41,138 nucleotides of DNA, from the NCBI GenBank assembly GCA_033178465.1, contig GCA_033178465.1_4726.2; one strand, 5' to 3'. Below the pieces are notes generated by a model. It saw only the letters and a program-made list of their open reading frames with translations. It was not told the DNA's origin and made no database searches. Each line of letters opens with the position of its first letter. Position 1 is the first letter of the stretch. Shown piece by piece: positions 1,103-30,352 of the stretch. Position numbers and translations under genes: made by a program. The DNA comes from a phage.

Positions 1103-3184
1103 ATGTTGGATAGAATCAATCGTTTAATGAACCGAATAACGGTTAAAAATCAGAGTAACAACACCGTGCATATCGGGGGTATCGATGCCTGGCGTCTTTC
1201 AGATGACATTCAGCGAATATGGGGTACCTCCCGATTTATGAAACATATGTTTCGTAATTTCTCTTCTAGTGGACTCAGTCTCCACAACTTTTACCTTCCC
1301 GATTTCGTTTATATTCTCGAAACGATCATCGAAGCAAAGAATACCCGCAGTAATAAACGCATGCTGAAACACCTTATTGAGGTACTGCTGCAGGAAACCT
1401 GGTTGCAAAATACCACAATCGAGCAACCTGCAATCCTCGATAAAGCACGCATGAACAAAATGCTAACGCTCTCTTTGTTCGATTATCAAGATGAGTTTAT
1501 CGACATCTATAACCGTAACGTACCTAAATACCGACTGAAAGGATACGTGTGCGCAATGGGTGCCGGTGCGGGTAAAACAATCACCGCGTTGGCTTTAAGC
1601 GCCGCAATGAACGTCGATGTATTTGTGGTCTGCTGTCCTAAGAACACCATGCGTTCAGCATGGCAATCCGATGTAAACAAAGCCATCGTTGACCCCGCAA
1701 CAGAAACCGCATTCTGGTCAGATACAATGCCACCATCACAGCTGCAGAAAAGCGATAAGTATTATTTTCTGCATTACGAGTCGATGGGCTTATTAAACGA
1801 TGTAATGATCAAGCATAAACGCACAGCGAAGCGAGTTCTTATTGTTGTTGACGAAAGCCATAACTTCAACGACAAGAACAGCCAGCGTTCCCAACGATTG
1901 GTTGATCTCGTACAGACGATGCGTCAGACCATGAATGCGGACGTGCATGTCTTGTTTATGTCGGGTACGCCTGTTAAACAAATGGGTTCTGAGATGATCC
2001 CCTGTTTAGGTTGTATCGACCCGATGTTCCAAGGACAGGTGGTCGATAGCTTCAAAGCAATTTACGGTTTAACCAGCAGTCGTGCTAACGATATCCTCAG
2101 ACATCGTCTTGGGTTCATGATGCATGTTGTGCCTAAAGAGGCTTACCGTAAAACCCGGCCGGAAGTTCAGGATGTTTACGTGAAGCTCCCTAACGGTAGC
2201 GATTATACCATCTCAAGTATCCGCGACGACATGGCGATATTTGTACGCGATCGGGCGAAGTATTACAAGGATAACTGGGGGCATTACCGAAAGATTTTTG
2301 ATGACGCCTTGGACTACTATCGCAAGACTATTCGTACCGATGGTGAACGTAAAGAGCTATCTCGATACGAATCGATTGTTGCTCGTTTCCAGAAAGGTTA
2401 CGACCCCGTCAGAGACAAAGAAGATGCGATGTTCTGCAACACGTTTGAAAAACGAGCGATCATGCCGGTTCTTCCTTCTGATTTAAGGATTGCTTTCAAA
2501 GACGCCAAGAGCGTCATCAAGTACGTTGGGTTGAAAATTCAGGGTGAGGCGTTAGCGCGTGTTCTAGGCGCAGCCCGCATTCGGTGTCATGTCGACATGG
2601 TGGAGTACATCGACTTCGAAGGGTACATCAATAACGCTGAAGCCAAGGTGTTGATCTTCACGTCGTACGTTCAGGTGGTTGAGCGCGTCGACAACATGCT
2701 TCGTGATGCGGGTTTCTTACCTGAACCCATTTACGGGAAGACCAACAAGAACATCAACCAGATACTTGCTCGTCTACGCGACGATCCCGACAGCGGTCCC
2801 GCTATCGCAACATTTGATAGCTTAGCTGAAGGGGTTCCAATGCTGATGTGTAATGTGGGTCTTTTCCTGAACAACCCGTGGCGTTCGTCCGATGAAATCC
2901 AAGCCATCAGCCGTCTCGATCGTGTAGGGCAAACGCAGCCTGTTCGGATTTATCGTTTCATGTTGGATACAGGAAGCGAGGGTAACGTTTCTACACGTAG
3001 CCACGAAATCATGGAGTTAAGTCGACAGCTTGTTGAAGAAATCACGGGCGTCAAATACGTGGTGAACAAGCAAGACGACGTTAACTTGCAAGAAACGTTG
3101 GCGATGGAAGGATACGATCAATACGTTACCGTAAACACCACGGAATACGATATTAAACCACGACCTGCGTTCTTGGAATGGTGA
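1103..3184 (+). CDS. SF2 helicase (SNF2/DExH-like ATPase)
   Basis: Walker A CAMGAGAGKT, motif II VVDESHNF (DExH), SGTP motif III and a helicase C-terminal region. The ORF track starts at a GTG (1055) inside the upstream hairpin, so I take the first ATG at 1103; the start is uncertain. Confidence 0.65.
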   Translation: MLDRINRLMNRITVKNQSNNTVHIGGIDAWRLSDDIQRIWGTSRFMKHMFRNFSSSGLSLHNFYLPDFVYILETIIEAKNTRSNKRMLKHLIEVLLQETWLQNTTIEQPAILDKARMNKMLTLSLFDYQDEFIDIYNRNVPKYRLKGYVCAMGAGAGKTITALALSAAMNVDVFVVCCPKNTMRSAWQSDVNKAIVDPATETAFWSDTMPPSQLQKSDKYYFLHYESMGLLNDVMIKHKRTAKRVLIVVDESHNFNDKNSQRSQRLVDLVQTMRQTMNADVHVLFMSGTPVKQMGSEMIPCLGCIDPMFQGQVVDSFKAIYGLTSSRANDILRHRLGFMMHVVPKEAYRKTRPEVQDVYVKLPNGSDYTISSIRDDMAIFVRDRAKYYKDNWGHYRKIFDDALDYYRKTIRTDGERKELSRYESIVARFQKGYDPVRDKEDAMFCNTFEKRAIMPVLPSDLRIAFKDAKSVIKYVGLKIQGEALARVLGAARIRCHVDMVEYIDFEGYINNAEAKVLIFTSYVQVVERVDNMLRDAGFLPEPIYGKTNKNINQILARLRDDPDSGPAIATFDSLAEGVPMLMCNVGLFLNNPWRSSDEIQAISRLDRVGQTQPVRIYRFMLDTGSEGNVSTRSHEIMELSRQLVEEITGVKYVVNKQDDVNLQETLAMEGYDQYVTVNTTEYDIKPRPAFLEW

Positions 3185-3283: not shown

Positions 3284-4735
3284 ATGAAACTTAAACAAAG
3301 CTGGAAAGACGAACTTCTCGCGTTAGTAAATAGCAAAAACAGTTTACAGCTGACATTAGCCGACGTAAAATTTGAGTTAACTGAACCGGTAAGCGAAGTG
3401 CCCGGAACGGTTGTTGTTACGATCAAACCGAACGATGATAGCCGTTACTTTAACGAGCAATCTCTGACCTACATTCGTCGAGACATCGCTAAAAACTTCA
3501 CCGGGATCCCGTTACGGGTTATCGTTAAAAATGATACCGCCGTAAGGGATATCATCAACACGATCGCTGAACGTTACGGATTGGTATTTGACACAACCGT
3601 CGACTTCCTCGAATCCGAGCTGAATAAACAAATTACGTTCGAAGACACCGGTATTAAAGACATTACGGTTCCGGTTGCAAACACGTCTTATGTTTGGGCT
3701 GGTAATCTTCAGTTCAATATCGCTAACGATACGTTGAGCTTGATTACGATCATCAAGCAAACCAATCTTACGAATCTGGTTTATCTGGATGGTGTTGAAG
3801 CTGACACATCGGGTTCGTTACTATTAGCAACAACCTCGGTTATCGGCGAAAACGGAAATGCCGAAACAACTGAAGGTGTCCTTGACGCCGCGTACTTCCA
3901 GAATATCCTGAACGTCATGGTTCGTTATGGTGATATTACCAACGAACAAATGCAACAAGCAATGCAGACAATTAACGGAAGCGAAGACGCTCGTAGAGTA
4001 GAGGTGCGGTCATACGGTGACGCCGAATTACTGGTAACCACCAAGAAAGATTGGGTTATCGGTAGCCTTAAGGGTGCTATGGTTGTTGGTCACGCTTCAC
4101 CTAAACCAATCCAATACGTTCTTAAAACAAAAGGCGGCACCATTATATTGTCATTAGATGGTTGGACAAATGTCAATATCGATTGGGGTGATGGGAATAA
4201 GACGACGCAGGACTCAGGCGATAATGAATATCAGCACAATTATGCGGACACTACAGAACGTACGATCGTCGCTACGGGTACCCCTACCAACGTTGAAGAT
4301 ACAGACGTACAGCAAAGCTTCACCGGTGGTAACATCACTGAAATCGTTGACTGGAACAACGGATTACCTAAGGCCCCATCATTACTTGCGGCGAACAGTT
4401 TAGTTAAGGTTCCCGATTATATCCCGGCATATTGGACGTCGTTAGAAAGTATGTTTACGCGATGCAGCGCTATTAACGACGTGAACATCACCAAATGGAA
4501 CACCCGCAACATTACTTCAATGAAGGACCTCTTCTACGGTTGCGCTACGTTCAACCAACCGATCGGTTCGTGGGATGTTTCGTCTGTTAAGAATGCAGAC
4601 AATATGTTGTCTGGGTGCTTCGCGTTCAATCAGGATCTGAGTGGTTGGACATTCCCGGCAGGCACTTCACACATCAACTACGACGCCATGACCGCCGCAT
4701 GGCAGGCTGGTTATAAACCACACTTCACCGAGTAA
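3284..4735 (+). CDS. hypothetical protein with C-terminal DUF285-like repeats (possible virion or host-recognition protein)
   Basis: 483-aa ORF. The C-terminus carries about 3 repeats of the pattern W-[DN]-x-S/T-x-V-x-x-M-x-x-x-F-x-x-C-x-x-FNQ (WNTRNITSMKDLFYGCATFNQPIGSWDVSSVKNADNMLSGCFAFNQDLSGW), which resembles the DUF285 (Mycoplasma-type) repeat. Terminators flank both sides. Confidence 0.55.
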   Translation: MKLKQSWKDELLALVNSKNSLQLTLADVKFELTEPVSEVPGTVVVTIKPNDDSRYFNEQSLTYIRRDIAKNFTGIPLRVIVKNDTAVRDIINTIAERYGLVFDTTVDFLESELNKQITFEDTGIKDITVPVANTSYVWAGNLQFNIANDTLSLITIIKQTNLTNLVYLDGVEADTSGSLLLATTSVIGENGNAETTEGVLDAAYFQNILNVMVRYGDITNEQMQQAMQTINGSEDARRVEVRSYGDAELLVTTKKDWVIGSLKGAMVVGHASPKPIQYVLKTKGGTIILSLDGWTNVNIDWGDGNKTTQDSGDNEYQHNYADTTERTIVATGTPTNVEDTDVQQSFTGGNITEIVDWNNGLPKAPSLLAANSLVKVPDYIPAYWTSLESMFTRCSAINDVNITKWNTRNITSMKDLFYGCATFNQPIGSWDVSSVKNADNMLSGCFAFNQDLSGWTFPAGTSHINYDAMTAAWQAGYKPHFTE

Positions 4736-4756
4736 AAAAAAAAATAGATAGCATAT

Positions 4757-4794
4757 CTTCCTCCCTACCCATAACGGGCGGGGAGGAGGGTTTA
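4757..4794. terminator. bidirectional terminator hairpin (CCTCCCTACCC ... GGGGAGGAGGG) between convergent genes
   Basis: Imperfect inverted repeat flanked by an A11 run on one side and TTTAT on the other, between the 3' ends of 3284..4735(+) and 4807..5145(-). Confidence 0.5.
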
Positions 4795-4806
4795 TGTCAA
4801 TTTAAT

Positions 4807-5145
4807 TTAGAACCAGAGTTCTTTCATGAAGTAGGCTTCCATATCGTAGATAAGCCACTCGTCAGGGATTTCTAAAGGATCGTCTTCGGTTAAGGTCAGC
4901 ATGTGCAGGGCGAACGCACGCTTAATATCGTTCAGCAGTTTCTCGTCGTCGTAACCTTCAGGTAGTTTACGGTCTACCAGCTGGGTTTGTTTATAGACAT
5001 CGCGGAATGCTTCAGGGCTGTGTTTGTCCATCGGAAATTGTTCAGCAGCCTGAACCATAGAAAGCGTCCAGCTTACAACATTGTAACGCTCACCGTTAAT
5101 TTCACTGAACTGATCATCGATTAAACAGATTTGTTGTACGTTCAT
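4807..5145 (-). CDS. hypothetical protein
   Basis: 112-aa ORF; its ATG overlaps the upstream gene's stop (ATGA); GGAG upstream. Confidence 0.55.
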   Translation of the reverse strand: MNVQQICLIDDQFSEINGERYNVVSWTLSMVQAAEQFPMDKHSPEAFRDVYKQTQLVDRKLPEGYDDEKLLNDIKRAFALHMLTLTEDDPLEIPDEWLIYDMEAYFMKELWF

Positions 5146-6035
5146 TCATTTTCTCCATTCTTATCTTGGTCGCAATCACACTCTTCGACGTCTTTCTTAC
5201 TTAAACGTAAGACACCGAGTGCGGCATGCTTGAGTTCTTGCAAAGCGCTTTTCAGCTGACCTTCTTCATCGAAATCAAAATACTTCTCGTTGTAGCTTAA
5301 CGCTGGAATCATATTTACGAGAGGTTCGATGGCGGGCATCAACATTTCAATGACGACCTTAGGATCAACAAAGCGTTCGAACCCTTCAGGAAGTTTGCTC
5401 ACTACAACCTTATCGTTTTTGATGTAGAATTTGTTCTTGAACAAATCGTCAAGAATAGCGTTCTCTTCATCCGTACGTTTTGCGTGAGGACGATCGATCA
5501 TCTGTACAAACACATCGCTCAACGCTTCAGGCAACGTCGGATTTTCACGAAGATAAGTTCCGGCCGGAATTTCAATATCGATCTTCGTCCACTCAACAAC
5601 CTGGTGGTCTCGCGTATAGATGACGTCAACTTCCCATGCCAGGCCATCAGCGCTTTCTACGGTGTAACGTGTTTTCGCTTGACCTTCCGGAGCCATGCGC
5701 TCAATGGCATCAAACATCTCGACTGGAATTTCTACCTCGCTTTCCGTTGCATCACCTGGGCCACGATATACCTTCGTGGTCATGATGTATTTCGGTTCTT
5801 CGTTATCGATCTGTATCGCACGTGCTCGTACTTGACCTTTCACACCACCAACGGCCGTGTTATCAAACAACCATTGATGTTGCACCATATGTTCGATTTT
5901 TGATGCGACTTGACGAAGACGTTCAACACCGTCTTCAGCCAGTTTACCAAAGAAGACCAGCTCACGTTCCTGCTGTGTCTCACCACTTAACATCATTAAA
6001 TTGGCGATTTGTTTCACGCCTCTTACTTGTGACAT
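5142..6035 (-). CDS. hypothetical protein (acidic C-terminus)
   Basis: 297-aa ORF; GGAG Shine-Dalgarno upstream of the ATG; translationally coupled to 4807..5145. Confidence 0.6.
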   Translation of the reverse strand: MSQVRGVKQIANLMMLSGETQQERELVFFGKLAEDGVERLRQVASKIEHMVQHQWLFDNTAVGGVKGQVRARAIQIDNEEPKYIMTTKVYRGPGDATESEVEIPVEMFDAIERMAPEGQAKTRYTVESADGLAWEVDVIYTRDHQVVEWTKIDIEIPAGTYLRENPTLPEALSDVFVQMIDRPHAKRTDEENAILDDLFKNKFYIKNDKVVVSKLPEGFERFVDPKVVIEMLMPAIEPLVNMIPALSYNEKYFDFDEEGQLKSALQELKHAALGVLRLSKKDVEECDCDQDKNGENE

Positions 6036-25774: not shown

Positions 25775-26008
25775 TTAGCAATGGTTGTTAGTTGCTTCTA
25801 TTTCGTCAAGATACGGTTCTACGTCATCGCCCTCCACGAATTCGTTGAACCAACAGTCAATGGTAGAAATAACCGGCGACTGGTGTTCACATTTCTTAGA
25901 TACCTTAAAAGGTACGTTATTATCCATCATACCGAGTTCGGGTCGAAAACGCCCGAAATGTTTCGCAGTCCAAATGTCTGGGACGATATGGTTGTTCATC
26001 GTAGTGTT
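25775..26008 (-). CDS. RNA polymerase beta' N-terminal subunit, proposed terminal exon (exon 4)
   Basis: In-frame translation NTTMNNHIVPD...ELGMMDNNVPF parallels E. coli beta' (DGD)QMAVHVP...ARALMMSTNNILSP, the region just after the catalytic motif. Begins right after a CTG that follows a conserved hairpin (26012-26037). The ORF track lists this as a 79-aa ORF 25775..26014. Confidence 0.5.
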   Translation of the reverse strand, partial: NTTMNNHIVPDIWTAKHFGRFRPELGMMDNNVPFKVSKKCEHQSPVISTIDCWFNEFVEGDDVEPYLDEIEATNNHC

Positions 26009-26357
26009 CAGCATGAGTCGCTACCTCATACCCGCAGCTTTACCTGCAGCTTCCGGTGTTACCGGAATGTCCAGAATACATCTTATCCATATTCCAAATG
26101 GAACGTAGGACTTCCGCGCTGGATCTCGCTTGAGACCACGTATTCGTTGAACGTTCTCCTGAACGGAGCTTCGCTGCTGATCGAACATTGTTACGTACGG
26201 TAGGCGTCCCCGAAGGGATTGTCATTGAAGCCGCGTACATCCGCTACCTTGTTTCTACCTTATCGGTTCCTCTTACGAGGCGTAGCGGCCTTAGCCCTTC
26301 CCAGCAATTCACGGAATCCAAGCTCTTCCTTTCGGAAGACAGGGCCTATGATTAAGC
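26009..26357 (-). ncRNA. group I intron-like element C (ORF-less), approximate boundaries
   Basis: Minus-strand core elements in canonical order: P-like GAATTGCTGGGAAGGG (26315-26300), Q-like GATCAGCAGCG (about 26183-26171), R-like GTTCAACGAATACG (about 26143-26130), S-like TAAGATGTATTC (about 26090-26077), then a 3' hairpin with GTAGCGA loop and CTG before the exon. Confidence 0.5.
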
Positions 26358-26367
26358 GTCACCGTCG
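26358..26367 (-). CDS. proposed 10-nt micro-exon (C GAC GGT GAC) supplying the DGD of NADFDGD
   Basis: Lies between S element of intron B and P element of intron C; preceded by ...AACAG (candidate terminal G). It is the only placement found that restores the catalytic aspartate triad in frame. Inference only. Confidence 0.35.
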
Positions 26368-26743
26368 CTGTTATCGACTATATCTTCATCCTCGTTGCGA
26401 GGAGTCTCCCGTTTTGGTCTGTGTTTAACAGAACCTACTCTACTCGACATCGCGTCTTTCGATAGTCTGTGAGCATACATCTTAACGAACATTCGTGGAT
26501 TCCTAAACAGGTGAATGTTCTTGTTGAGATGCTTCGCTGCGGATTATTCCCGTCCTACCTCTTTTACCATACCCAGTTCATTACGCTGGCCCTCATCTGT
26601 GTCACCACGATGAGTTGGTGTGTAGTCCGATTACAGAAACTTCCCGTCAATTAGAGAGTTTTAACTACGTTCCTGTTACCAGAAACCAGATCCCGACGGT
26701 ATCAATAAATCAACGTAAGTTATTGATTTAATTGAAAAAACTG
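26368..26743 (-). ncRNA. group I intron-like element B (ORF-less), approximate boundaries
   Basis: Minus-strand P-like AATTGACGGGAA (about 26657-26641), P5-like GGGTATGGTAAAAG, Q exact AATCCGCAGC (26544-26535), R-like GCTCACAGACTATC (about 26478-26461), S-like GAAGATATAGTCG (26387-26375). The 3' tail after S is unusually short (7 nt), so the junction is uncertain. Confidence 0.5.
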
Positions 26744-26765
26744 AAATCTGCATTATCTAAATCTT
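26744..26765 (-). CDS. proposed 22-nt micro-exon (AA GAT TTA GAT AAT GCA GAT TT) supplying ...DLDNADF
   Basis: In-frame N-A-D-F codons at 26754..26744, immediately after the intron A 3' hairpin plus CTG and immediately before intron B. Inference only; the exon may start at 26762 instead. Confidence 0.4.
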
Positions 26766-27140
26766 CAGTATGGTTCGCTACACCATACCCGCACATACGT
26801 GCAGCTTACGTCTTTCACGTAAGAAGAGACTATATCTTTCACCCTCAGCATTATCTGGTCGGGGCCCCCATTTCGGCGGTCAGATGACCGGTGGTTTCCC
26901 ACGCCGCTTGGCCCTAACGCCCGTAAGCGATAGTCGTTGAGCACATCTCCGTTCTGGAGACTTCGCTGCGGATTCCCCAATCCTTGCCGCTTTTACCATA
27001 CCTGAATGATTAGTTCAGCCCCACACTCTGTTCCCAGGCGTGGTTGGTGGACAAGGCTCTAAGTAGGTTCCCGCATTAGGGAGTTCCTCGTAACAACATT
27101 TCTGCGTTACTGGGCCTAACGACCCTTTCAAGATCATCAC
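26766..27140 (-). ncRNA. group I intron-like element A (ORF-less), approximate boundaries (5' splice site estimated 27130-27146)
   Basis: Minus-strand P-like TAATGCGGGAAC (27080-27069), P5-like CAGGTATGGTAAAAG, Q exact AATCCGCAGC (26974-26965), R-like CTCAACGACTATCG (26941-26928), S-like AAAGATATAGTCTC (26839-26826), and a 3' hairpin GGTATGGT-GTAGCGA-ACCATAC (26795-26770). Confidence 0.55.
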
Positions 27141-28364
27141 GCTTAACCCGATGGTATTATCCTGCGGATCGCGTTTAACCTTGGTGATTTCAAGACATTG
27201 GTTACTGCTTCGGTCAAGTGATGGGTTTCGAACAAAACCACACACAATCCCATCGAACGGTGTATCAGCAATAAGCTCATCGTGCAGCTCACTCATCATC
27301 GGATGATAATTACGGACATGTTCCGCAACGAACGCACGTGCAGCTCTTGGTGAATAACCACGATGGAATAACTTGGATTGGATATGTTCTTTATTGGTTA
27401 AAGTAAATGGCGCGTATGGGAAATGCAGATGATAATAACGATGGTTCGCTGTTATCGAACTGATTACGGTACGCGTGGTGAATGGATGTAATGTACCTAA
27501 TATGTTTTTACGTGTAATACCTTTCTTCTTACCGATGAACTCATCGAAAATCGCCGCGTGGTATTGCAGCAGCTTCAATTGCACTTTCGCCATCCAGTTT
27601 TCTTTCTTTCTGGCGCTCAAAGGTGTTGTTGGGTGATAGATACTATTCAACGTACCGATAGCATCGATCGCACCTTCCATTTTGCTATCCGCATAACGAC
27701 CGGTTGGCGTATTCTCGATAACGAACATCATGGCCGCAGGAAAGCTGATATACTGACTGAAGAACTTATCACGATGGATACGGATGAATTCTCGTAGCGT
27801 GTCAACTTTCTCCGTGTTCTTCGGTCCACGTAACGTCGGTCCTTTATACAAGATCTCCATGATGCGATCGAAGTTCTGTATAAAGCTATTTACACCACGA
27901 CGTATCCCGAATACATCGAATTGCTGCTCCAGATAGTTCTTGAGTTCGATGGGTCGTTTTACATTTGGACGGTAACTGGCATCAATGAGCCACGTCATCG
28001 TTTCAAAGCTTTTGATATTCAACTCGCTTGCCAGCACGAGATGGACCAACGGGTTAATGAACGCATCGATTCCTTCAGGAACGCGCGCCCAAACAGTCGA
28101 ACGAATCTCTTGTTCTGCTGGGTAGGTTACAACCGTTTTACAGTTTGGACACACCGTGCCGAGTAGCTCACCACGATTGTAGAAACCACAACCACATTGT
28201 GGTGTGATATCCAACGTATCGCTGGAGTAAACACGGGTGATAAAACTGTTTAATTTCTTCTTCTCTTCGACGACTTTTGTATCGTAATCATTCAACAAAA
28301 TCGGCGTAAAAGGAAGTTCTGCGAGCTGTCTATCGAAACTCACGATATCGAGCATGATGGCCAT
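27015..28364 (-). CDS. RNA polymerase beta' N-terminal subunit, exon 1 (ORF as listed; true 3' end probably about 27130-27146)
   Basis: Zinc-ribbon [20 protein letters not shown] matches the beta' N-terminal Cx(2)C...Cx2C; [26 protein letters not shown] parallels [35 protein letters not shown] parallels NRAPTLHRLGIQ. The ORF then runs into intron-like sequence and stops without NADFDGD. Confidence 0.6.
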   Translation of the reverse strand: [449 protein letters not shown]

Positions 28365-28456: not shown

Positions 28457-30352
28457 TTAGAACAGGTTGAATGCCCCACCCATGTTGTTAACGCCAACAT
28501 TCGGACGATCGCTACGTGCGTAGATGTTACCGGAGATGTTACCCAGACCACGAGCACGTGCTGCCATGTTACCACGAACAGCGGTACCTGCCAGATGCTG
28601 GATGTTCTCAGGACGGATGGTGAAGCCAGCGTCAGCAGCGGCTTCGATCAGCGCCTGCAGTGCTAACGGATCGAAGTCGTAACGCATTGCCCAGCCGGTT
28701 TGTTCCCAGCTACCAGACAGAACACGATCAATGATTTCGTGACGAGCGACAACACGCTGAGACATCGTCATATCGGTACGGTCGAAGCTGTCTTCCCAAG
28801 CTTCTACGGTATCCGGGTTAGTGATGTTCATCATGTACAGATCGTCCATATCACGAATATCGTGACGGTGGCCATCCTGGTGGTTGTAGTGACCCAGCGG
28901 GATACGGTTACCGGTAGCGTAGACCAGCGGTAAGCCGTACTGATATTTCTTGCTGAAGCAGCCCAGGGTAGTATCATCGAAGGCACGGTAGAGTGCTTTG
29001 TAACCTTCGGAGATTTCACGGACTTCGCCTTCAACTTTACCCGTATAGATCTTCTCAGCCGCCGGGATCATACGCAGCAGCCAGCTGTATTCGCCTTCTT
29101 CCGGTACGTCGATAGAAATCAGCAGAGACGGATACAGTACCTGTTGCAGGAACTTGTAAATCTGCTCGTTGGTTTGAGTAGACAGATCCAGCGGTGCGGT
29201 AACTTCCGGATCCAGTACCATTGCCAGAGCACCCGGGTTATGCGGACCGATGCCACGAGCAGCGTTGCTGATTAAAGACTGTGCCCACGCCATACCGCTG
29301 TTCAGCGTAGCGATGGTACCAATCAGACCCAACACGAAAGTGTTCGGTGTGAACGCATCCAGCTCCAGCGGGTAAGCACTGGTCATCACGTAACGCGGCT
29401 GGTATTGTACAGTCGGCGGTACCGGATAACCGTTAACCAGAACAGGGCCTTGGTTGAAGGTCGGGTTCTGCGGGCTGTAGGTCAGGTCAATGTAACCGGT
29501 GGTGGCGACCAGACGCTGTTGACTATCGTAATCGCTCATCGCTTGACGGATGCGGTTAGAGATAGTTACAGTGATGTCAGAACGCACAGGGTTACCAACA
29601 ATATCGCTGTCCTGCATACCGCTGGTGTTGTACTGAACGCTGCTGATTGGCTGATCGCTTGCCATCATGCCCAGGTTGAACTGCGGCAGACCCAGTTTAT
29701 CACCGAGACGGATTTCGATCGCGGTTTGGATTGCGTTATCTGCAGCAGACAGCAGGGTGGTTGCCAGATGCGCAGATTCAGCGGTGATTTCATTGGTCAC
29801 CACAGCCAGACCAGCGATACGAGCAGTACCATTAGACTTACCGCCAATAGCTGCATACATTGCCGCCATGACTTCGTTGATGAACGTACCGTTCAGGTTA
29901 TCAACCCAGGTACGCGGTACCAGAATGTTACCGTGCGGACCTTGTTCTTCACGACGCGGCAGCGGAGCCAAACCGGCAACCAGCGGAAGCACATAACCGA
30001 AGAAGTGGTTATGGTCACCAACTTTTGCACCACTCATAACGACCAGGGTCGGATACGGTACACTGTACTGGTTAGGATCGACGGTCACCATGATGAAGTC
30101 GTCTTTGAATCCTTTATCTTCCAGTTCTTTCTCCATCAGACGACGGAGATTCAGTACCTGCTCGGAGCCAGTATTACGGCTAATACGACGGCTCAGTGTA
30201 CGGTTGATCGTACGCATCGTATGAGTTACTTTAGGCTGGCCAGCAAAATCTGCAGCGGTTTCCAGCGCCTCATCAGCACGTTGTGCGGTGCGGGTTTCAG
30301 CTGCACGAATTTCTACATTATCGTTACCGTTATTACGTACGTCTAAGCCCAT
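28457..30352 (-). CDS. chmA: putative chimallin (phage-nucleus shell protein), alternatively another major early protein
   Basis: 631-aa ORF with AGAGGA Shine-Dalgarno, driven by an early-promoter motif and ended by a strong terminator. It sits immediately upstream of the beta' N-terminal gene, matching the gp54-gp55 arrangement I recall for phiKZ; the length matches known chimallins (~630-700 aa); both termini look disordered. No motif-level confirmation is possible by eye. Confidence 0.5.
   Translation of the reverse strand: MGLDVRNNGNDNVEIRAAETRTAQRADEALETAADFAGQPKVTHTMRTINRTLSRRISRNTGSEQVLNLRRLMEKELEDKGFKDDFIMVTVDPNQYSVPYPTLVVMSGAKVGDHNHFFGYVLPLVAGLAPLPRREEQGPHGNILVPRTWVDNLNGTFINEVMAAMYAAIGGKSNGTARIAGLAVVTNEITAESAHLATTLLSAADNAIQTAIEIRLGDKLGLPQFNLGMMASDQPISSVQYNTSGMQDSDIVGNPVRSDITVTISNRIRQAMSDYDSQQRLVATTGYIDLTYSPQNPTFNQGPVLVNGYPVPPTVQYQPRYVMTSAYPLELDAFTPNTFVLGLIGTIATLNSGMAWAQSLISNAARGIGPHNPGALAMVLDPEVTAPLDLSTQTNEQIYKFLQQVLYPSLLISIDVPEEGEYSWLLRMIPAAEKIYTGKVEGEVREISEGYKALYRAFDDTTLGCFSKKYQYGLPLVYATGNRIPLGHYNHQDGHRHDIRDMDDLYMMNITNPDTVEAWEDSFDRTDMTMSQRVVARHEIIDRVLSGSWEQTGWAMRYDFDPLALQALIEAAADAGFTIRPENIQHLAGTAVRGNMAARARGLGNISGNIYARSDRPNVGVNNMGGAFNLF

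Follow-up and report, generated by a model that had tools for sequence, protein, structure and literature searches.

The group I introns of phage T4, in the td, nrdB and sunY (nrdD) genes, are the closest described systems to the elements examined here. Introns of subgroup IA2 are defined by P7.1/P7.2 together with extended P9.0/P9.1/P9.2 and a GAAC-type motif after P9.2 (PMC4227781), and group I introns have also been described at the catalytic residues of multisubunit RNA polymerase (RNAP) genes of phages (PhiPA3 gp210; PhiKZ; PhiPA3 gp65-66) (PMC11620839, PMC11077065). A single gene with three group I introns and exon skipping is named, for orf142 of phage Twort, in a title in the reference list of PMC11878797. 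We analysed a 41,138-nucleotide (nt) stretch of phage DNA (NCBI GenBank assembly GCA_033178465.1, contig GCA_033178465.1_4726.2), referred to below as the window, whose RNAP beta'-like gene carries three group I introns, A, B and C, and we focused on two hairpins near the 3' ends of introns A and C. Escherichia phage vB_EcoM_Goslar, a jumbo phage that forms a nucleus, shares 98% identity with the region, and judged by sequence the source is a jumbo phage of E. coli similar to Goslar. Every feature described below is on the minus strand. The results indicate, with a probability of about 0.88, that each hairpin is helix P9.2, the last of the series P9-P9.1-P9.2, in a td/nrdB/sunY-type (IA2-like) self-splicing group I intron, with its loop docked on P7.2. 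Helix P9.2 has long been known and named in phage introns of this type, an identity that the initial annotation of this sequence, made from the letters alone, overlooked; introns A, B and C appear to be new, largely unannotated members, for which self-splicing is predicted.

An exact pattern search for the hairpin and the following CUGAA located GGTATGGTGTAGCGAACCATACTGAA at 26789..26764 and GGTATGAGGTAGCGACTCATGCTGAA at 26032..26007, with 0 matches to the hairpin pattern expected in shuffled sequences. The two hairpins and the tails that follow them are:

26767..26789, minus strand: P9.2 hairpin of intron A, arms 26789..26782 and 26774..26767, loop GUAGCGA at 26781..26775
26757..26766, minus strand: 3' tail of intron A, GAAGAUUUAG, ending in the terminal G (placed by the intron-less allele of Goslar and by T4 td spacing)
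26010..26032, minus strand: P9.2 hairpin of intron C, arms 26032..26025 and 26017..26010, loop GUAGCGA at 26024..26018
26000..26009, minus strand: 3' tail of intron C, GAACACUACG, ending in G26000 (placed by gapless protein alignment, Pfam score and intron-less ortholog DNA)

Folded alone, each hairpin reached -10.1 kcal/mol (z -2.6 and -3.15). Three hairpins follow one another in the 3' ~75 nt of each intron (z -3.5 and -3.1), and the one described here is the third. Between the two stems there are two double substitutions (G-C/U-A versus A-U/G-C) and a single change of U-A to U.G, none of which breaks the pairing. These results bear out the initial annotation insofar as it described two homologous minus-strand hairpins with an identical 7-nt loop and paired stem substitutions, and the structure prediction it proposed gave a stable fold both for the hairpin alone and within the 3' ~75 nt; its coordinates (26795-26770 and 26037-26012) were displaced by 2-6 nt. 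Its remark that the second hairpin contains a stop codon was also correct, the loop supplying UAG in GGU AUG AGG UAG in the frame of the downstream exon. From hairpin to terminal G runs an 11-nt single-stranded tail, U-GAAGAUUUAG in intron A (where U is U26767) and U-GAACACUACG in intron C, with the consensus U-GAACAUAAUG. The introns thus end in UGAAGAUUUAG (A) and UGAACACUACG (C), 11 nt past the hairpin.

Comparison with the 3' ends of the T4 td, nrdB and sunY introns identifies the hairpins as P9.2 of the td/nrdB/sunY type. In T4 sunY/nrdD the intron ends, after the I-TevII open reading frame (ORF), in GGUAGAG-AAGUAGCGAA-CUCUAC-UGAACACAUUG^ (^ marks a splice site). Its P9.2 loop is identical (aGUAGCGAa) and lies just upstream of the 3' splice site, its tail UGAACACAUUG matches the end of intron C, and its P7.2 loop is the same (GGGUC-AAGC-GACCC). 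The sunY intron differs in its host gene and in an endonuclease ORF of ~800 nt between the core and P9.2, whereas the window introns are ORF-less. The T4 td intron ends in GAUAUAGUC-P9-P9.1-GGUAAG-AUUAACGAC-CUUAUC-UGAACAUAAUG^CUACCG; this sequence was located in T4 at 100% identity, and the boundaries of the 1016-nt intron reproduce the 286-amino-acid (aa) thymidylate synthase. The T4 nrdB intron ends in GGUUGAG-AAUUAGCGAG-CUCAAUC-GAACAUACG^. Both td and nrdB have the hairpins P9, P9.1 and P9.2 in this order and, after an 11-nt tail, the terminal G. In nrdB the loop UUAGCGA is combined with an AAGC P7.2 loop, the state found in introns A and C, whereas td combines UUAACGA with AAGU, the covarying alternative; the stems of td and nrdB are unrelated to those in the window, and their endonuclease ORFs sit in other loops. 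Additionally, the extended P9 domain and GAAC-type tail are common to introns A and C and to subgroup IA2, including the intron part of IStrons, which differ in having an insertion sequence (IS) element after P9.2.

To extend the comparison to the family, viral contigs in IMG/VR were scanned with only GG, the loop and CUGAA fixed and the twelve stem positions left free, and at least 120 loci were recovered. Among the matches listed, those lying after a group I P7' motif were paired at 5-6 of the 6 free positions, and those without the motif mostly at 1-3. For the covariation analysis we used 54 distinct hairpins from other viral contigs, chosen by the upstream motif only. In this sample 86.1% of the cells were paired, compared with 58.4% in shuffles, so the covariation across homologs anticipated by the initial annotation was present; slid controls reached at most 44%. 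The covariation score was 0.694 versus 0.164 in shuffles (none of 500 as high), and at each of five stem positions every Watson-Crick pair type occurred. In a Goslar-like contig (L008), the intron C ortholog has a different stem, GAUACGAA/UUCGUAUU, and the same loop. These results demonstrate that the stem is free to vary while pairing and that the loop (n)GUAGCGA(a) is conserved.

A conserved hairpin with an AAGC loop follows P7.1 in the family (consensus UCCC-GAAA-GGGA-GUA-stem-AAGC-stem), and its counterparts in the window are:

26906..26909, minus strand: AAGC loop of P7.2 in intron A (GCC-AAGC-GGC), assigned by family loop-loop covariation
26122..26137, minus strand: P7.2-like hairpin of intron C, GGUCUC-AAGC-GAGAUC, loop AAGC at 26131..26128, assigned by fold and family covariation

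In a second scan, in which the P9.2 loop was left free, P9.2 loops UAGCGA or UAACGA occurred matched with P7.2 loops AAGC or AAGU. Introns A and C combine GUAGCGA with AAGC; the matched-loop rule applied here is our operational criterion and not a published definition. The P7.2/P9.2 loop pair was C-G in 49, U-A in 15, U.G in 1 and another combination in 1 (66 distinct sequences, alignment A4), and the neighbouring loop-loop pair was G-C in 64 and A-U in 1. The loop-loop cells were paired in 98.5% of cases versus 89.4% in shuffles and at most 76.5% with the partner slid, and one intron carried a double switch, AAAU/UGAUGA. On a rough neighbour-joining tree the U-A state was scattered among the C-G state, which suggests about 13 independent switches between the two. 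In intron B, P9.2 and the AAGC loop are both missing.

Because the loops covary in matched fashion and T4 td versus nrdB/sunY follow the same rule, we propose a tertiary contact between the P7.2 and P9.2 loops. The covariation points to this contact as a tie between the 3' splice-site region and the ribozyme core, with G26778-C26906 and C26777-G26907 as candidate pairs in intron A. In this mechanism, the P9.2 loop would dock on the tetraloop-like AAGC loop of P7.2, located between P7 and P3', through one or two Watson-Crick-type pairs (G4 of UAGCGA with C4 of AAGC, and C5 with G3). Docking would close a ring of peripheral elements round the catalytic core and keep the 3' splice-site segment near the G-binding site in P7, so that exon ligation would use the correct terminal G in preference to a closer one. 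Michel et al. (1992) reportedly showed that the sunY intron needs a long-range pairing of a peripheral element of the core with nucleotides immediately before the 3' splice site, and this pairing may be the P7.2-P9.2 loop contact. Nothing usable on a published contact between these two loops was found in the literature searched, which did not include key papers of 1990-1993. The covariation of the P9.2 and P7.2 loops yields a rule, simple and open to testing, for the anchoring of a remote 3' splice site to the core of T4-type introns.

Several observations weigh against this assignment. In the wider family the loop-adjacent position of P9.2 is mostly a mismatch (C.A, A.A), so that the family loop is effectively nGUAGCGAa and the closing-pair covariation, which the initial annotation had counted among the compensatory changes, is not a family feature. 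Subgroup IA2 has both P7.1 and P7.2, whereas intron C has one hairpin (GGUCUC-AAGC-GAGAUC) between P7 and P3'; intron A has UCGC-UUAC-GGGCG followed by GCC-AAGC-GGC in this position, but the stems are weak, that of P7.2 being 3 bp. The group I model of Rfam (RF00028, gathering score 50) matched intron B with 50.7 bits (26734..26352), and at relaxed thresholds it gave scores below the gathering score for intron A (29.7 bits, E 4e-5 in a 2.1-kb search, 27142..26806) and, as a partial match, for intron C (16.8 bits, E 0.3, 26316..26112). We inferred the splice junctions from homology. No conserved complement of the GUAGCGA loop of 5 nt or more was found in 56 family members, where complementary 5-mers and 6-mers are among the rarest words, so that the proposed contact would comprise only 1-2 pairs; pairing from a 4-nt P7.2 loop is, moreover, sterically demanding. 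Finally, a regular-expression parse of our own supplied the loop positions for the covariation test, and the sequences are not independent of one another by descent, a relatedness that the shuffle controls ignore.

The relatedness of the sequences also favours an alternative in which P9.2 is real but its loop binds a protein or docks elsewhere, for instance at a helix receptor within P1/P2 or P3-P8; covariation with P7.2 would then be phylogenetic hitch-hiking. Only one loop-loop pair covaries often, and the tree of the loop switches was a rough one built on a noisy alignment, both of which would fit such hitch-hiking. On the other side, the 66 distinct sequences contain no A/C mismatch and a single G.U at the loop-loop pair, both loops have switched together in the AAAU/UGAUGA intron, close sister introns differ in loop state, and intron B lacks both partners at once. 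We consider docking elsewhere improbable and retain P9.2 docked on P7.2. Other partners were tried for the loop and the tail and were rejected. A long kissing helix with the P9.2 loop found no conserved 5-6 nt complement in the 56 family members; CGCUAC (intron C, ~26288) and UCGCUUAC (intron A, ~26925) are unconserved strands of local helices; and a pairing of tail UGAAC with GUUCA in J6/7 does not fit intron A (UGAAG with GCUCA). P11 is a feature of subgroup IA1.

A second alternative concerns the likeness of introns A and C itself. Intron A looks like a mosaic: its P5/P4' region resembles intron B (40/44 identical) and its last 47 nt resemble intron C (39/47 identical), with little likeness elsewhere. 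Since the likeness of A and C is limited to the 3' ~47 nt, the 3' domain seems to have been exchanged as a module. The same pattern, including a core of intron A that resembles B, could be read as the recent copying of a 50-nt piece of DNA between A and C, by duplication or gene conversion, with paired substitutions that arose by chance under no RNA constraint. However, pairing persists in over 50 unrelated stems that enclose this P9.2 loop, and the loop itself covaries with another, distant one; exchange of a module is in any case compatible with constraint at the RNA level. Chance substitutions in a copied segment are thus a very unlikely explanation, and the two hairpins are better read as P9.2 helices maintained by RNA pairing.

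The position of the 3' splice sites relative to P9.2 depends on the exon-intron structure of the gene. The chimallin gene (Pfam Chimallin) occupies 28457..30352, and the RNAP beta'-like gene, directly downstream of it, is divided as follows:

27122..28364, minus strand: exon 1 of the phage RNAP beta'-like (N-terminal) subunit gene, adjoining the chimallin gene and ending ...AAA GGG U; its protein aligns to intron-less homologs
26757..27121, minus strand: intron A, a 365-nt ORF-less group I intron, last base G26757 (Goslar comparison; Rfam Intron_gpI)
26744..26756, minus strand: exon 2, the 13-nt micro-exon AUAAUGCAGAUUU (..Y N A D F..), from homolog alignment and intron-less ortholog DNA
26368..26743, minus strand: intron B, a 376-nt group I intron without P9.2, last base G26368 (Rfam; Goslar comparison)
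26687..26699, minus strand: internal guide sequence of intron B, CCGUCGGGAUCUG, its pairing read directly from the sequence
26355..26367, minus strand: exon 3, the 13-nt micro-exon CGACGGUGACGCU (..D G D A), from homolog alignment and intron-less ortholog DNA
26000..26354, minus strand: intron C, a 355-nt ORF-less group I intron, last base G26000 (partial Rfam match, minimum free energy (MFE) fold, Goslar comparison)
25775..25999, minus strand: exon 4 (MNNHIVPD... to the stop codon), from comparison with the Goslar annotation and homolog alignment

The correct product is predicted to be a 497-aa non-virion RNAP beta' protein encoded by these four exons. All three introns are ORF-less and split codons of the beta' motif YNADFDGDAM. 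Exon 1 is 98.5% identical to Goslar up to 27124, and Goslar has no counterpart of window 27123..26757, so that intron A is missing exactly between U27122 and A26756 (Goslar AAA GGT TAT AAT GCC GAC TTC; window AAA GGG T(365 nt)AT AAT GCA GAT TTC). This comparison places intron A at 27121..26757, starting after U and ending in G. The spliced model (...ILKGY-NADF-DGDA-MNNHIVPD) aligned without gaps to 12 homologs, in all 12 of which the beta' catalytic motif NADFDGD is invariant, and a syntenic intron-less ortholog (chimallin, a 496-aa RNAP gene and a 212-aa gene) has contiguous DNA of equal length, AAAGGGTATAACGCTGACTTTGATGGTGATGCCATGAAC. The spliced protein matched Pfam RNA_pol_Rpb1_2 (PF00623) across the junctions with 36.9 bits, and the unspliced 449-aa ORF matched no Pfam family. 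Taken together, the gapless alignment, the ortholog DNA and the Pfam match place intron B at 26743..26368 and intron C at 26354..26000.

The internal pairings agree with these boundaries. A U.G wobble in P1 marks the 5' splice site of all three introns (A, GGGU^C with GGCCC; B, CAGAUUU^ with GGAUCUG; C, GCU^UA with UAGGC). In intron B, the 13 nt of ligated exon sequence CAGAUUU^CGACGG can pair throughout with CCGUCGGGAUCUG (P1 and P10), through 11 Watson-Crick and 2 G.U pairs, the splice-site U.G included. The MFE fold of intron C recovered P1, P2, P3, P4, P6, the P7.2-like hairpin, P9, P9.1 and P9.2, and its P7, as read from the sequence, is GAAUA/UAUUC versus GACUA/UAGUC in introns A and B, a compensatory difference. 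All three introns end in a terminal G, and their excision restores the host reading frame. Two further matches were discarded: the 5' splice site of intron B suggested by Rfam, after UUCAAU (26735), breaks the NADFDGD frame and ignores the 13-nt guide complementarity, and matches to the snoRNAs sR24/sR58 at 27265..27303 are weak (E 2-4.4) and attributable to chance.

The initial annotation had made each hairpin the very last element of its intron, with the 3' splice site directly after CUG. A G does follow the hairpin in both introns, and in intron C a junction after CUG stays in frame. In intron A, however, the intron-less allele of Goslar puts the end 9 nt further on, and joining CTG^AAG to the 5' splice site at U27122 would create a UAA stop codon. 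In intron C, the junction after CUG would insert Asn-Thr-Thr between DGDA and MNN, an insert present in 0 of 12 homologs, and would lower the RNA_pol_Rpb1_2 match from 36.9 to 29.2 bits. A tail of 10-11 nt follows P9.2 in all three T4 introns, td, nrdB and sunY. Splicing directly after CUG is therefore highly improbable; nine further intron nucleotides follow CUG in both introns, up to G26757 and G26000. The hairpins stand as structured, non-coding elements at the 3' ends of group I introns, as originally described, but they do not abut the splice site. As for transcription terminators or translation signals of a downstream ORF, these have a negligible chance of being the explanation: the Goslar annotation does start a coding sequence (CDS) at 26014, with an ATG inside the second hairpin (gp185), but there is no U-run after either copy, the same element occurs in dozens of introns in unrelated genes, and the 79-aa ORF is the C-terminal part of the 497-aa protein, contiguous in intron-less orthologs.

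The gene has been annotated differently in Goslar. The RefSeq locus lists an 'RNA polymerase beta subunit', then Intron_gpI, an HNH endonuclease and a 79-aa hypothetical protein. In NC_048170 (3076..6364) the annotated RNAP CDS is truncated inside intron B, and exon 4 forms the separate hypothetical protein gp185, whose start ATG lies in the 3' arm of P9.2. Intron C is present, unannotated and 98.9% identical to the window copy. In Goslar and its relatives, the RNAP beta' gene is thus misannotated as a truncated CDS plus a 'hypothetical protein'. The 449-aa read-through ORF of the window, which runs from exon 1 into the beginning of intron A, exactly matches a protein cluster of 159 members, which indicates that the allele bearing intron A is common in public assemblies.

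Goslar intron B also contains a 1065-nt module (3671..4735 in Goslar) with an HNH/NUMOD1 endonuclease ORF in the P9 loop. This module is bounded by a perfect 14-bp stem, UUACGUGCACCGAC/GUCGGUGCACGUAA, and stops a single base short of the intron's terminal G; at the corresponding site (26369..26371) the window has only CA.

The hairpins themselves are ordinary, and the setting, with three introns and two 13-nt micro-exons in a catalytic motif, may be the more unusual part. The published RNAP introns of jumbo phages are single, whereas here three, none with an endonuclease gene, are confined to 26 coding nt of the RNAP catalytic motif. Twort orf142, as far as its title goes, shares the presence of several self-splicing introns in one phage gene and differs in host gene and phage. 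Both micro-exons are shared out between the guide sequences of their neighbours, exon 2 between P10 of intron A (UAAUG) and P1 of intron B (CAGAUUU), and exon 3 between P10 of intron B (CGACGG) and P1 of intron C (GCU); these pairings cover 12 of the 13 nt of exon 2 and 9 of the 13 nt of exon 3. The locus provides a compact model in which to ask how neighbouring ribozymes are kept from mis-splicing. The P9.2/P7.2 'lock' is common to introns A and C, so that cross-docking of the neighbouring introns is conceivable. In related jumbo-phage contigs, introns occupy at least two or three other sites within these ~30 nt. The accumulation of introns on the NADFDGD codons agrees with the view that catalytic motifs of essential genes are targets of homing elements. 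We tentatively suggest, as a possibility more doubtful than probable, that the setting is an unusually dense homing hot spot in which cross-docking of A and C could lead to exon skipping or ordered splicing and make polymerase output dependent on the fold.

Further introns in this motif, or just upstream of a comparable coding stretch, were observed in three viral contigs. L008 (237.5 kb) has two C-type introns at other positions of the motif (4267..4991), the first after AAC GCT (4266) and the second after GAT GCC (4634), with the 18-nt micro-exon GACTTTGACGGTGATGCC between them. The 5' exon of the first ends in ACGCU, as at the intron C site of the window, and this intron looks like an ectopic insertion guided by the same guide sequence; the 5' splice site of the second is seemingly C, not U. 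In a 185-kb contig (L003), the NADFDGD region contains a tandem pair of group I introns with strong scores (75 and 62 bits) at 4760..5612, separated by CTTCGATGGTGAT (13 nt). The first of these has the P9.2 loop GUAACGA, and no U-based 5' splice site could be placed for it with the frame kept. In a 261-kb contig (L071, ~1139..1190), the P9.2 tail of a td-type intron is followed by GGATTTTGACGGTGGAAGC, so that the intron again lies just upstream of a stretch coding for D-F-D-G (here DFDGG).

Parts of intron A were also matched in other phages, at loci that include phiKZ NC_004629 186350..186467, OMKO1 and PhiPA3 55162..55281. Its 3' third matched unannotated stretches of PhiKZ-like Pseudomonas phages at ~74% identity, and its middle matched the RNAP beta fragment region of PhiPA3, as well as SPO1-like Bacillus phages and the DNA polymerase introns of rV5-like coliphages.

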